Assembly (NCBI GenBank): GCA_965222075.1
Contig: OZ244937.1
Coordinates: 2,880,001-2,944,000, forward strand
Origin: Candidatus Latescibacterota bacterium
Lineage (GTDB): Bacteria; Latescibacterota; UBA2968; GCA-2709665
Reading direction: 5' to 3'
DNA length: 64,000 nt
In this document: piece after piece, positions 9,750 to 14,407 of the stretch
How positions within the stretch are numbered: the stretch's first letter is position 1
Layout: each line of letters starts with the position of its first letter
Position numbers and translations under genes: made by a program
Notes under the pieces: generated by a model
Databases searched by the model: none
What the model was told of the DNA's origin: nothing
What the model saw: the letters and a program-made list of their open reading frames with translations, nothing else

Positions 9750-11565
9750 TACCCCCTGCCTTTCCGTCGAAGACCACACCGTTCCTCTCCCGATCGGTAT
9801 AAATGAAAACCGTCTGGCTGCCGAAAAGTACATGGTCTGTCCGGATGCGCATCCGCTCCAAAACCGTTTGCCTCACCCGTCTGACGGTCCCCGATTCCCG
9901 GGACAACCGGAGCGCTGAGAGGACCGAAGGGGGAAGCGCAGACACCTCCCGTCCCTCCACCGTCACCCCCCCTTTGGGGGAGAGGAGTTCAAGAATAAGC
10001 CCGTCGTTGCGCTCCACCCGGCCCAGCAGGCGGATCAGGTGCGCTAAATCCCTGGGCGTGTACTCGCCGGGCACCCGCTTGGCCTCCAGTGCAGCGTGGG
10101 CGCGGGCGCTGGACACCCGCAGGGTCAGCCGCCCCCTCCGGGCCTGCGCAGGGATCACCAGCAGCGTATCCACCTTTTGGAGATCTCCCAGATAGGGCCG
10201 CAGGGTAACCGTCACCCGGGCGGTATCCCCCGGCTGAAAACGGACCTTCTGCAGACGAACCGCCTCAATCCGGGCAGCCCGGGCCCGCTCTTCCACCTCC
10301 AGATCGAACGCCACCTCCTCCACCCACACCGGTTCAAAAGGGTTCTGCATCAACCGGGACAGGGGGGTCGTTGCTCCCAAAACCGCCTCTCCCAGGCCCT
10401 GAGCCCCGGCGTAAATGTTCTCCACCTCCAGAGGGGGATGCCCTGCCACTACGATCTGGGTACGTGCCCGCACGGTGGTCTCGCCCATCAGCTTCTCGGA
10501 CGAAATCAGAGCGCTTGCTACCGCCATCCTCACCAGCAGCGGGCCGAAATCCCGGTTGCGCAGCACCTCCATCCGGAACCCCTCCCGGTTGCCCGGCGAA
10601 CGGATCTCGATCTGCGTCGGGATCATCTCCGCCTCGCGGCCCACAATCCCTGCAATCCCCGGCGCCCGGTCCTGCACGATCAGGCCCATTGGGTGGGACG
10701 CCGCACCCAGCTTAAAAGAGAGGTATTGGCTGGGAAACACCTGGTGGATGTAGGCCGCCGTCATCGGCATCGCCGTGCTGCCCCCAAAAAGCATCGGGTG
10801 CCCGAACCCGACCACCCGGTCCCCATCCCGATAGGTGAGGGTGCCAATGCCCGTCACGCTGAAATCGCCCCGGATAAGCTGCACCCCCAGCGGGGCACCG
10901 GGCTCAAACGGCCCGGACGGAAGGGACGCATCAACACCCCCGCCCCCCTGAACGGGCAGCAACCCGAGAGGCAGCAGTTCCTCCCTGAGTTCGGCCACCA
11001 CCCGGGGCGCAAACCCCGACATCACCAGAGGTATCGCCACCGGCCTCAACGCACCGGCCTCCAGTCCCGCCGGCTCGGCAACAGAAGGCGTCCCCCCCCT
11101 GCCCTGCCGCAGCCAGGACCCCAGGCTGGAAGCCGCGTCCGACGGTGCGGAGGGGCGCTTAAGCACGTCGATCATCTCGGCAATGGGCGTAATCCCGGCA
11201 ATCGGTTCTTTGGCAAAAATGCCGAAACTGTAAGCCACAGCCCCGACCAGCTTCCCCTGGATATAGACCGGGCTGCCGCTCATCCCGGCGATCACCCCCG
11301 TCTCTTCCAGCGGACTTCCCGAAAGCCGGGCCAGAATAATGTCGCTTCGGGGACCCAACACGTTGCGCAGAACCCCCAGGACCTCGACCTGAAACGTATC
11401 GATGCGCGTCCCCTGAAAGACCGTCCGGCCGATGCCCACCATGCCCCGTTGAATCTCATCGACGGACATCTGCGCAACCGCCCCGGCCGCGCCGCAATCC
11501 CTCGGGGAAACCGCCGGGATAAGGATCAGCGCAAGACAGAGAACAACAGAAGAGAACCGGGCCAT
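9736..11565 (-). CDS. Secreted SpoIVB-type (peptidase S55) serine protease
   Basis: Signal peptide MARFSSVVLCLALILIP; GVIAGMSGSPVYIQGKLVGAV and GIGTLTY..VVGFGHP motifs. Confidence 0.88.
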   Translation of the reverse strand: MARFSSVVLCLALILIPAVSPRDCGAAGAVAQMSVDEIQRGMVGIGRTVFQGTRIDTFQVEVLGVLRNVLGPRSDIILARLSGSPLEETGVIAGMSGSPVYIQGKLVGAVAYSFGIFAKEPIAGITPIAEMIDVLKRPSAPSDAASSLGSWLRQGRGGTPSVAEPAGLEAGALRPVAIPLVMSGFAPRVVAELREELLPLGLLPVQGGGGVDASLPSGPFEPGAPLGVQLIRGDFSVTGIGTLTYRDGDRVVGFGHPMLFGGSTAMPMTAAYIHQVFPSQYLSFKLGAASHPMGLIVQDRAPGIAGIVGREAEMIPTQIEIRSPGNREGFRMEVLRNRDFGPLLVRMAVASALISSEKLMGETTVRARTQIVVAGHPPLEVENIYAGAQGLGEAVLGATTPLSRLMQNPFEPVWVEEVAFDLEVEERARAARIEAVRLQKVRFQPGDTARVTVTLRPYLGDLQKVDTLLVIPAQARRGRLTLRVSSARAHAALEAKRVPGEYTPRDLAHLIRLLGRVERNDGLILELLSPKGGVTVEGREVSALPPSVLSALRLSRESGTVRRVRQTVLERMRIRTDHVLFGSQTVFIYTDRERNGVVFDGKAGGSGKK

Positions 11566-11646
11566 GCAAAACACCTCACAAAAAAGACCGTTGCCCTGGA
11601 AAAACCAGAATCTACCGTGCAGCAGAACAAAAGTCAAGCCTCCCTA

Positions 11647-11675
11647 ATTATACCGGTTTTGGTTTCAGCGAACAA
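11647..11675 (-). promoter_or_regulatory. Sigma70-like promoter for the S55 peptidase (possibly the whole rib/nusB run)
   Basis: TTGTTC-17 nt-TATAAT on the minus strand. Confidence 0.65.
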
Positions 11676-11680
11676 GCCCC

Positions 11681-11709
11681 TTGTGAAATCCCCTGAATCT
11701 CCGTATACT
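11681..11709 (+). promoter_or_regulatory. Divergent sigma70-like promoter with no convincing downstream gene
   Basis: TTGTGA-17 nt-TATACT. Confidence 0.45.
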
Positions 11710-11759
11710 GGGGGCATGCAGATCGCCCTGCTCCGCATTCCGCAATCGGTTTGCCTTTC

Positions 11760-12098
11760 TGCAAAAAGCCCGGGGAACAGAACCTCGAACAGCCGGGGAG
11801 AGTTGATTCCCTCGCCAGGAATCCGGCTGCCTCGAGCGCGCTCTGCCCCCGGGCTTTATGCAACTCACGGTGGCGGGTCGGCCCTCAGCCGACAACAGAG
11901 TAGTTATTCAGTAAATTTTAAACGGGGAAGAACAACCGATCGAAACGTCAAACAGCCGGATCGGCATCCAGAAGAGCAGGACCTAATGAAGGTGGGGAAA
12001 AGGGGAAATCGCCAGGGGTCTACACAGGGGCCAGCCGATGGGGCATCGCATCCCCTGCTGCTGGAGACGGGGGTGTCTCCTGGAAAATAGTGGGGGAC
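11760..12098 (-). ncRNA. Candidate structured non-coding RNA (~340 nt), family not recognised
   Basis: Upstream TTGACT-17-TATCTT promoter, at least four small hairpins, and a 3' ~100-nt stem ending in UUUUU. No credible CDS. Confidence 0.5.
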
Positions 12099-12104
12099 GC
12101 CACA

Positions 12105-12133
12105 AAGATAAGCCTTTGTTTTTCTTAAGTCAA
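12105..12133 (-). promoter_or_regulatory. Sigma70-like promoter for the candidate ncRNA
   Basis: TTGACT-17 nt-TATCTT. Confidence 0.6.
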
Positions 12134-12330
12134 GAGGAAGTTTTTCCCATCGCAATATATTGGGGCCACACTGGAAGAATATACCTTGAATTTGGAGACC
12201 GAACCCGTTTGAGACGGGTGCTTTCACCTGGAAAACCAGCACAATAACAGAAGCCGACCCTGTCTCCGGAGTCGGCTCATATCCAACGAATTGATGGGTG
12301 AATGGGTTACCGTGACAATTCACCATCTAC

Positions 12331-12513
12331 CTATGCCGCTCGCTTTTCAGCACACCGCAGCGCTTTCAGGGCCGCCATCCAGGCCGCTTCGTAGGCCGCC
12401 AGCGCCCGGCGCCACACCGCCGGGGCTGCTCCCTCCTGCTGAACCTGCCGGGCCGCCCGTTCGATCGCCCGTTCTGTGGCCGCAATCTCCGCATCGAACT
12501 CACCCCCTTTCAT
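12331..12513 (-). CDS. Small Ala-rich helical hypothetical protein (60 aa)
   Basis: Starts 8 nt after the ankyrin-like gene stop; plausible codon usage; weak RBS. Confidence 0.45.
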   Translation of the reverse strand: MKGGEFDAEIAATERAIERAARQVQQEGAAPAVWRRALAAYEAAWMAALKALRCAEKRAA

Positions 12514-12520
12514 TCACAGC

Positions 12521-12916
12521 CTACCCAGCACCTTGCGCTTCCAGCAGTTCAACAACCGCGTCCTGCCCGCCGATTCTGGCGTGAACCACCAGGGGGATAC
12601 CGTGCGGACCCTTCTGGTGCGCCACCTGAGGATCATCAGTGAGGAATGCCTTGACGATTTCAACCTTTCCCAGCATCGCTGCACAGAAAACATCCATCCT
12701 GGCTCCTCTGGACAGAAGATGCTCGGCAATCGCCTTGCCATTGGTATGCGCAGCGGCGCCAAGCGCAGTCTCCCAATCCCCTCCGCCCCAGTCCCAGCAC
12801 GCATTGACCAGCGCCGGTTGCTGCTCCAGCAGTTCTTTTACCCGATCAAAATCACCGTGAGCCACTCGCACAAATTCTTCTACCATCTCTTTACCCAGCG
12901 CAGGAGGGGCATCCAT
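12521..12916 (-). CDS. Small ankyrin-repeat-like protein
   Basis: AHGDFDRVKELL, DWETALGAAAH, LLSRGAR, AAMLG, GPHGIPL. Confidence 0.85.
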   Translation of the reverse strand: MDAPPALGKEMVEEFVRVAHGDFDRVKELLEQQPALVNACWDWGGGDWETALGAAAHTNGKAIAEHLLSRGARMDVFCAAMLGKVEIVKAFLTDDPQVAHQKGPHGIPLVVHARIGGQDAVVELLEAQGAG

Positions 12917-13201
12917 TGTAAACCCTTTCTGTTTTTTTGTTTTGATGGTGTCTATCTGCGGCTTATTTTGACGTGATTCTACAGCTTTTCCATACAACAC
13001 AATATAGTGAACATTCGTACAGTTTTCAAGGGCTTTTCAAAGGTCCTGTGACATTCCCTTAACCGGAGCGTAGAAGCCATCCCTTTGATCGCCCCCCTGC
13101 CACAGAGCCAACAGGGCTCAAACCCATCCTTCCCCAAAGCCTCGCGCCCCAATTCCCCGGCGATCTGTTTTTTCCCCCGATTTCCCCTCCTAACATATCT
13201 C

Positions 13202-13230
13202 TGGACAGGAACGCTATTGTATATTATCTT
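13202..13230 (+). promoter_or_regulatory. Putative promoter of the Gfo operon
   Basis: TGGACA-17 nt-TATCTT. Confidence 0.45.
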
Positions 13231-13348
13231 CCAGACCCCGGAAATCGGTCGCCCTGCTCCGGCCATGACCCAGACACAGACGCCGTCCACCCTGCCAAAC
13301 GCTGTGCTCGTTCGCGTTTCCCTACCCCTCTGCAAATAAGGGGTTCTC

Positions 13349-14407
13349 ATGGCAAACACCTTAAAAGTCGGCATCATCGGCGTTGGAGGCATCGCCTCCA
13401 GCCATATTCCCGGCTGGAACGCCTCGGAGCACGCCGAACTGGCCGCCGGCTGCGACATCGACAAACGTGTCCTCAACAGATGGGGGCAGAAGCACGAAGT
13501 CTCAAAGCTCACGACCGACTCTGCGGACCTCTTCAAAAACCCCGACATCGACATCATCGACATCTGCACCCCCAACGCCCATCACGCCCCCCTGGCCATC
13601 GCTGCGCTGGGCGCCGGCAAACACGTCATCTGCGAAAAGCCCTTAGCGCCCACCCCCGGCCTCGTCAAAAAGATGATTGCCGCACAGGAGGAATCGGGCA
13701 GGCTGCTGATGACGGCCCAGCATTTCCGCTTCTCGGGTTCGGCCAGGGCCATGAAAGCCGAAATCGACAGTGGCGTCTTAGGCGAGGTCTACCACGCCAG
13801 AAGCTGGATGCTGCGCCGGTCGGCGGCTCCCACCAGCCCCGGATTCATCCTCAAACAGCACAGCGGCGGGGGCCCCTGCATCGACATCGGCGTCCACATC
13901 TTAGATCTCACCCTGTGGTTTATGGGCAACCCGAAACCGGCGACCGTCAGTGGTGTCGCCCGCGCCGAACTGGCCCACCAGAGGGGCGCATTCAGCAACT
14001 GGGGCGGCCCGATCCCTGAGCAATTCGATGTCGAAGACTTCGGCGCCGCCTTCGTCCGATTCGAAAACGGGGCCACGCTCATCCTCGAAGTCAGCTGGCT
14101 GCTCCACCACGATACCATGGTAGAAGACATGCAGATGTGGCTCTACGGCACGAAGGGAGGCAGCCACTGGCCAAAGTGCGAAATCTATGAAACGAACAAC
14201 AAAACCAGGCAACACTACAACCGGACCTTGAAAAACACCAGAGACCGCCTGGAGCCCCACGCTCAGGAGTGCGTCGAATTTGCCCGTGCAGTTGTCGAAG
14301 GCGCCCCTTCGCCCGTGCCGCCCGAACAGTCGCTGCAGGTCATGACCATCTTAGACGGCATCTACCGCAGCCAGGCGTCCGGCCGCGAGGTCAAAGTGAA
14401 GGTGTGA
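13349..14407 (+). CDS. Gfo/Idh/MocA family oxidoreductase
   Basis: KVGIIGVGGIA, ICTPN..H, GKHVICEKP, GGGPCIDIGVH. Confidence 0.95.
   Translation: MANTLKVGIIGVGGIASSHIPGWNASEHAELAAGCDIDKRVLNRWGQKHEVSKLTTDSADLFKNPDIDIIDICTPNAHHAPLAIAALGAGKHVICEKPLAPTPGLVKKMIAAQEESGRLLMTAQHFRFSGSARAMKAEIDSGVLGEVYHARSWMLRRSAAPTSPGFILKQHSGGGPCIDIGVHILDLTLWFMGNPKPATVSGVARAELAHQRGAFSNWGGPIPEQFDVEDFGAAFVRFENGATLILEVSWLLHHDTMVEDMQMWLYGTKGGSHWPKCEIYETNNKTRQHYNRTLKNTRDRLEPHAQECVEFARAVVEGAPSPVPPEQSLQVMTILDGIYRSQASGREVKVKV

Follow-up and report, generated by a model that had tools for sequence, protein, structure and literature searches.

Within the window, by which we mean the whole stretch of 64,000 nucleotides of Candidatus Latescibacterota DNA that was analysed, a gap of 770 nt extends from the terminator of an upstream gene (12278-12251) to the next start codon (ATG at 11565; the ATG at 12565 plays no part in the gap that holds the element). 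Inside this gap, on the minus strand, lies what is very probably (probability of about 0.9) a stand-alone gene for a structured non-coding RNA of approximately 336 nt, with a strong, unusually conserved promoter and an end of its own made of a hairpin and a U-run. The features of the gene are listed below in window coordinates and in the order of transcription, with the basis for each call in brackets.

12151..12165, minus strand: upstream palindromic box CCCCAATATATTGCG, general form CCmCA-N6-TGyGr (by eye, upstream listing)
12105..12133, minus strand: promoter with -35 TTGACT (12133-12128), 17-nt A-rich spacer and -10 TATCTT (12110-12105) (promoter scan, conservation)
11763..12098, minus strand: predicted transcript, ~336 nt (deduced from promoter and U-run)
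12063..12080, minus strand: hairpin H1, GGAGAC/GUCUCC with loop ACCCCC (sequence and fold)
12025..12057, minus strand: hairpin H2, outer stem CAGGGG/CCCCUG and inner stem CGAU/AUCG (12048-12036) with loop GCCCC (sequence and hairpin finder)
11991..12008, minus strand: single-stranded tract UUUCCCCUUUUCCCCACC (sequence, C4 run predicted unpaired)
11877..11964, minus strand: variable middle with H3 CCGAUC/GAUCGG (11964-11936), a CCCC run (11927-11924) and H4 GUCGGC/GCCGAC (11893-11877) (sequence and fold)
11768..11854, minus strand: 3' hairpin with a covarying basal helix, an irregular middle and the invariant helices CAGCCGG/CCGGCUG and GAUUCC/GGAAUC (covariance model R1, pair counts)
11823-11805, minus strand: apical stem-loop of the 3' hairpin (covariance model R1, pair counts)
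11796..11804, minus strand: 9-nt bulge AACUCUCCC, family consensus AUCUCUCCm, anti-Shine-Dalgarno-like (alignments, consensus structure)
11763..11767, minus strand: U-run after the hairpin, putative intrinsic terminator tail (sequence)

Transcript, strand and RNA libraries

The promoter scan gave 9 of 12 matches at the sigma-70-type site 12133-12105, and over 1.3 kb it found three sites vs 0.4 expected. The transcript start (12098) was placed 7 nt past the -10 and the transcript end was set at the U-run, resulting in a predicted RNA of ~336 nt (12098 to 11763), in agreement with the ~340-nt RNA with its own promoter and terminator that the initial annotation had proposed. The promoter TTGACT-17-TATCTT and all of the hairpins described there are present at their places on the minus strand, and the long terminal stem followed by UUUUU is an irregular hairpin of ~87 nt (11854-11768) with a U-run to 11763. 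The minus strand is supported as the RNA strand by the G-U pairs of the stems, which on the opposite strand would become C-A mismatches; this argument, raised when only one sequence was considered, is borne out by the family alignment, where 49 of 53 distinct sequences have G-U at one pair, and G-U or U-G also occurs at times in several further hairpin pairs. The orientation of the promoter and the predicted folds also support this strand, with a minimum free energy of -132.9 kcal/mol and z = -3.29 for the minus strand (0 of 100 shuffles as stable) vs z = -1.15 for the plus strand (14 of 100 shuffles as stable).

The element, for which detection of a transcript had been the suggested experimental check, is covered in RNA libraries by contigs that give neither the strand nor the exact ends. 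Four sponge metatranscriptome runs from one study yielded contigs 100% identical to the window, covering 11729-12093 (365 nt), 11691-12053, 11733-12013 and 11716-12071, and the longest of them (11729-12093) ends 5 nt from the predicted start. Word depth is low (3.5-5.4), and these depths cannot rank expression. The contigs extend ~30-70 nt beyond the U-run, and separate contigs lie on the downstream gene, with a gap before them; 12094-13000 is without a contig in the four runs, and such missing cover proves nothing. In run X4 one contig connects 11857 back to 11716, a join that the assembly may have created artificially where the hairpin forms an inverted repeat.

Conservation and structure of the RNA family

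The RNA is lineage-specific, single-copy and near-universal in one Candidatus Latescibacterota order. It occurs once in its own 5.36-Mb genome and is therefore not a MITE with many dispersed copies, an explanation that the initial annotation had kept in view. In BLAST searches against 40 relatives, conservation was confined to two blocks separated by 210-350 nt, one being the promoter and the other the 3' hairpin. A covariance model (R1) that was built for this hairpin from 37 sequences (alignment A1) matches 50 of the 53 genomes of the order with scores of 41.8-108.4 bits and one locus each, and these genomes span two families and 11 genera. The only second places matched by R1 are a weaker echo on the opposite strand and one 29-bit match in genome G001. 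The three genomes missed are fragmented (80, 88 and 91% complete), and one of them retains the promoter and the 5' part where a contig ends. In the two remaining families of the class, R1 matches 0 of 79 genomes. The exact hairpin-core pattern occurs at 46 loci in 185,579 species genomes (one genome per species), 38 of which are titled Candidatus Latescibacterota/Latescibacteria and five Gemmatimonadetes/ota, and on 17 metagenome contigs.

The columns of the promoter are mostly 90-100% identical among 56 distinct upstream sequences, and the same is true of its spacer. A degenerate promoter word is found in 52 of the 53 genomes of the order vs none of 115 genomes from the remainder of the phylum, and the reversed word, which served as a control, has two matches in 168 genomes. 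The palindromic box was judged by eye in positions -95..-1 of the 56 distinct upstream regions, with no formal count; it lies ~20-45 nt upstream of the -35 in genera g1, g4, g5, g6, g7 and g10, is degenerate in g2, and takes the form CCACA-N6-TGTGG in other genera. The site upstream of the RNA gene was the sole occurrence in a genome-wide search for a regulon with the box core pattern. By its form and place the box may be the site of a regulator.

Pairs of the 3' hairpin were counted in a model-guided alignment (A3) of 68 hairpins, 53 of them distinct, with the irregular middle left out because it has no common register. Standard pairs fill 96.6% of 1160 cells, vs 33-55% after a shift of the 3' partners by 1-3 columns. 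Both sides have changed in 11 of the 22 pairs, and the observed covariation score was reached by 0 of 500 shuffles; homologues and covariation, which had been proposed as tests of the element, were thus both found. Variation is unevenly spread along the hairpin. Seven of the eight pairs in the basal helix covary (e.g. GGG/CCC in most genera vs AAA/UUU in genus g2), seven of the 14 pairs in the upper helices AGCC/GGCU and GAUUC/GAAUC never vary, and none of the five pairs in the apical stem has changed on both sides. The 9-nt bulge, on the 3' side of the upper hairpin, is unpaired in the consensus structure, and its CTCTCC is invariant in 37 of 37 sequences of A1 and, by eye, in 53 of 53 distinct rows of A3.

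The only terminator reported by a simple scan was that of the upstream gene at 12278-12251; the 3' hairpin was not among its results. Many members of family f2 have weak tails such as GAUUUUAA or GUUUAGCG. The hairpin is preceded by an A-tract and followed by a U-tract in genera g2 and g6, a layout that fits a bidirectional terminator common to the RNA and to the convergent gene rlmH. Bidirectional intrinsic terminators likewise have a G+C-rich basal stem between an A-tract and a U-tract and stand between convergent genes; the RNA differs from them in its stem of ~87-115 nt, its invariant apical half and its conserved bulge. A conserved insertion of ~20 nt in the apical loop, UGAGGUGCnACCACACACGC, was seen in L056-L060, L122 and L132 (genera g8 and g9), and in these two genera the stop codon of rlmH abuts the 3' hairpin.

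The 58 distinct full-length variants measure ~245-385 nt across genera, and the middle region differs between genera in both length and sequence. RNAalifold gave an empty consensus for a global alignment of the 5' 150 nt of these variants, the 5' part being too diverged, and the 5' structure was therefore taken from subgroup consensus folds and a hairpin finder. The subgroup folds consist of separate hairpins with no pairing between the 5' and 3' ends. An H2-type inner hairpin with a CCC(C/U) loop is present at ~+43..+62 in 55 of the 58 RNAs (at +20 in one shorter variant), and the three variants without it all come from one genus. Its loop-proximal stems are of 15 different kinds among the 58 variants; since the hairpin finder selects pairing by construction, the evidence lies solely in the occurrence of such different stems at a constant position. 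Several genera have a hairpin with a C4-C6 loop at a place similar to that of H1. The composition of the 5' domain is 29% C and 20% G, with a mean of 3.1 C4+ runs vs 0.34 G4+ runs, and 56 of the 58 variants have 2-8 C4 motifs per RNA. The mean predicted unpaired probability of the C4 runs is 0.72 (179 runs, 58 RNAs), and the predicted structure exposes C runs in loops and linkers, as in C-rich-loop sRNAs.

Neighbouring genes, the second locus and known RNA families

The downstream neighbour in the family is a SPOUT methyltransferase gene of the RlmH type (PF02590), which at 77 of the 83 loci (a set in which some genomes appear twice) is convergent and lies 0-140 nt downstream of the hairpin. 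The six loci without rlmH come from four genomes (G000, G001, G003 and G034), including the own genome G000 and a congener. PF02590 was found nowhere in G000 or in the congener G001, and in G013 only a 45-residue remnant matches it. The own genus has lost rlmH and kept the RNA, and the RNA gene has thus outlived rlmH. Because the downstream gene is convergent in most relatives, the RNA is not a leader, and the view of the initial annotation that it stands alone is upheld. A cis leader or riboswitch was rejected on the same grounds, as the element has no constant place ahead of a co-oriented gene. Upstream neighbours vary by genus (oxidoreductase, MFS transporter, amidase). The next gene in the own genome is on the same strand and encodes an S55-peptidase-like protein; the promoter that had been claimed for this gene is predicted by the scan at 11637-11609.

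No conserved open reading frame was found in the 16 of 58 variants that were examined, whose peptides are unrelated and one of which has no reading frame of at least 15 aa, and the 140-aa reading frame at 11904-12326 has no Pfam match. The upstream reading frame 12524-13036 (minus strand) has weak matches to ankyrin repeats (best E 7e-5; one family just above the cut-off and two below), and the reading frames 12514-12804 and 12979-13575 have no Pfam match. The upstream flank of L056-L060 (genera g8 and g9) contains a conserved same-strand reading frame that ends in ...RRLDRRRRFRLQSLN just upstream of the RNA; read by eye, it encodes a small protein or else the C-terminal end of a larger protein.

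The same promoter (TTGACwnAAAAAAAACAAAGGCTTAT), followed by a C-rich leader, is found at a second locus ~170-250 nt ahead of a gene. This second site is present in seven genomes (genera g3, g4, g7, g10 and g11), with a mismatched one in G034 and none in the own genome. The second loci L147-L153 (~700 nt each) and L154-L156 (9 kb each) were examined, and the G034 site was left out. By eye, several of the seven leaders have H1/H2-like hairpins with CCCC loops, and all three of the proteins that were scanned (of seven reading frames behind the second locus) have NHL and/or CARDB domains. A tblastn comparison of the genes downstream of the RNA here with the genes behind the second locus of relatives gave no match.

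No known family accounts for the RNA, and the lack of an Rfam match that had been predicted for a novel RNA held in the window, in the loci of relatives and at second loci. No Rfam 15 family reached its gathering score anywhere in the 64-kb window, and at E <= 10 on 11500-12400 there were two chance matches, both on the plus strand, and none on the strand of the RNA. The RNA loci of 18 relatives and two second-locus loci, searched at E <= 0.1, yielded nothing at gathering score; two sub-threshold matches among them were suhB (25.9 vs 41 bits) and CsrC (20 vs 61 bits). The initial annotation had seen no hallmarks of tmRNA, RNase P or SRP RNA, and these identities are rejected, as the family models match elsewhere in the genome: the SRP RNA is at C1:2391133-2391233, the RNase P RNA at C1:4781675-4782053 and the tmRNA at C1:3425700-3426064. 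The 6S model RF00013 matches none of 21 genomes of the order (the own genome and 20 relatives), and it matches only five of 14 control genomes, so that its silence says little. Either this model is too weak for the order or the 6S RNA of the order is very divergent. Membership of the 6S family was rejected for the element, which has no closing stem between its 5' and 3' ends, no two-sided central bubble and no RF00013 match.

Several described regulators share the C-rich loops. The 6C RNA is an RNA of ~100 nt from Actinobacteria with two hairpins whose loops hold at least 6 C, and is Rfam family RF01066. A study of Mycobacterium tuberculosis 6C reports chaperone-independent binding to several mRNAs via its C-rich loops (PMC6486639). 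Both 6C and the RNA described here are highly conserved, lineage-wide small RNAs with a strong housekeeping-type promoter and C runs in hairpin loops, whereas the latter has an additional invariant 3' hairpin with a CUCUCC bulge, is longer and belongs to another phylum. Membership of 6C was rejected, as there is no model match and the element has loops of 4-6 C and a length of 245-385 nt in the phylum Latescibacterota. The Xanthomonas RNA sX13 (~115 nt) is Hfq-independent and pairs with G-rich motifs in the 5' regions of mRNAs. C-rich loops are named in a paper on sX13 (PMC3771888). It resembles the present RNA in having several stem-loops with CCCC loops and differs in that it has no sequence or Rfam relation to it, no counterpart of the 3' domain and no linkage to rlmH. 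RsaE/RoxS of Firmicutes pairs with Shine-Dalgarno regions through unpaired C-rich motifs; such motifs are shared with the element, but there is no Rfam match and size and architecture are different. Decoys of the CsrB/RsmZ type are similar in that several copies of a short motif are displayed in hairpin loops and the motif or module is also found in mRNA leaders, and different in that the motif here is CCCC instead of GGA and the genome has no CsrA. Literature pairing the name of the phylum with sRNA or ncRNA included no regulatory-RNA paper, subscription journals and supplements being outside the scope of the search. The RNA family is undescribed relative to Rfam 15 and that literature.

Possible mode of action

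The RNA probably controls other genes by way of its exposed C-rich runs. By analogy with the C-rich-loop RNAs above, we favor, at somewhat less than even odds, a trans-acting riboregulator that would pair through its C-rich motifs and need no Hfq-type chaperone. The exposed C runs (the H1 and H2 loops and the UCCCC tracts) and the CUCUCC bulge would nucleate G-C-rich pairing with G-rich sites in the 5' parts of mRNAs (GGGG, or GGAG of Shine-Dalgarno regions), and this pairing would block ribosome binding or alter mRNA stability, as for 6C, sX13 and RsaE/RoxS. The base of the 3' hairpin would double as the intrinsic terminator, in most relatives common to the convergent rlmH. Hfq, CsrA and ProQ have no family match in the own genome (97.6% complete, single contig), which fits chaperone-free G-C seeds. 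The Shine-Dalgarno consensus of this genome is AGGAGG, with AGGA, GGAG and GAGG enriched 2.8-4.3-fold upstream of long reading frames; this enrichment and the canonical CCUCC tail of its 16S rRNA (end GGAUCACCUCCUUUCU) make the CUCUCC bulge anti-Shine-Dalgarno-like. GGGG is enriched only 1.25-fold upstream of starts, and the CCCC loops are therefore rejected as generic anti-Shine-Dalgarno elements; they would pair with rarer GGGG sites. The speculation in the initial annotation that C-rich loops could pair with Shine-Dalgarno sequences has to be narrowed accordingly, with the CUCUCC bulge as the candidate for such pairing.

Several observations sit uneasily with this riboregulator model. A C seed of 4-6 nt is too short to predict a target, the RNA is two to four times the length of 6C, sX13 and RsaE (245-385 nt), and the RNA contigs are shallow (3.5-5.4) and strandless. 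Its best-conserved part is the upper 3' hairpin, the paired bases of which never covary, as is more typical of a protein-recognition site, and the promoter and H1/H2 module also head mRNAs for secreted NHL/CARDB proteins, which pure antisense action does not predict. These last points lead to the main rival, which we regard as possible but doubtful: the RNA would be a decoy or scaffold for an RNA-binding protein that recognizes the CCCC loops and/or the upper 3' hairpin and is titrated off mRNA leaders with the H1/H2 module, by the logic of CsrB/RsmZ with another motif. It would explain why the upper 3' hairpin shows no variation, not even in its paired bases, next to a freely covarying basal helix, and it agrees with the 2-8 C4 motifs in 56 of 58 variants, with the shared promoter of the seven second loci and the H1/H2-like hairpins seen by eye in several of their leaders, and with the NHL and/or CARDB domains of the three scanned second-locus proteins. 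The sole gene consistently linked to the RNA, however, is that of an rRNA methyltransferase, rlmH, which is missing in the own genus; CsrA, Hfq and ProQ were not found in the own genome, and the second locus could simply have arisen by duplication of a strong promoter together with a stabilising 5' end. A more specific version, which we rate as unlikely, would have an undiscovered RNA-binding regulator recognize the CCCC-loop module, with the stand-alone RNA as its multi-site decoy, the NHL/CARDB mRNAs as its direct targets and the upper 3' hairpin as a second protein handle. If true, this would be a titration circuit like Csr/Rsm on a different motif, in a sponge-associated member of a phylum without CsrA, Hfq and ProQ.

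The other explanations carry little weight beside the riboregulator model. An improbable one is a mimic of the 16S 3' end or an RNA linked to ribosome biogenesis, in which helix 45 and the anti-Shine-Dalgarno tail would be imitated by the apical hairpin and the AUCUCUCC that follows it, and the RNA would bind Shine-Dalgarno-bearing mRNAs globally or factors that handle the 16S 3' end. CUCUCC can pair with GGAG(AG), and with GGAGG via one G-U pair, the 16S end GGAUCACCUCCUUUCU is loosely like GGAAUCAUCUCUCC, and rlmH lies right beside the hairpin at 77 of the 83 loci; the likeness nevertheless needs two or three indels, the exact CACCUCC is missing, the helix-45 comparison is a loose idea, and the own genus keeps the RNA without rlmH. 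The retention of the RNA where rlmH has been lost also speaks against the quite improbable reading that the element has no RNA function of its own and is a bidirectional terminator of rlmH with a leftover promoter and leader or, here, a cis leader of the S55-peptidase gene. Such a reading would suit the A-tract, hairpin and U-tract beside the convergent rlmH, the same-strand orientation of the next gene in the own genome and the RNA contigs that run ~30-70 nt past the U-run, but the preservation of ~45 invariant apical bases plus a 9-nt bulge throughout an order is not a property of terminators, every genus conserves the promoter and H2, and the gene downstream changes from genus to genus and in the own genome has a predicted promoter to itself. 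A functional analogue of 6S/Ms1 that binds RNA polymerase is very improbable: it could be argued from the silence of RF00013 in 21 genomes of the order and from a single-copy, near-universal RNA with a strong promoter, yet RF00013 matches just five of 14 controls, and the RNA has ends that do not pair and a self-contained 3' hairpin with only a one-sided 9-nt bulge.

To our knowledge, the Latescibacterota (formerly WS3) have no cultured member. The RNA is a clean candidate for a new family, being single-copy, near-universal in its order, backed by covariation, present in RNA libraries and findable by its invariant core. Unusual features are its sequence-invariant helices, its close association with rlmH and the recurrence of its promoter and 5' module before surface-protein genes, and as a putative riboregulator it would offer an initial way into the post-transcriptional control of a lineage without the usual chaperones.
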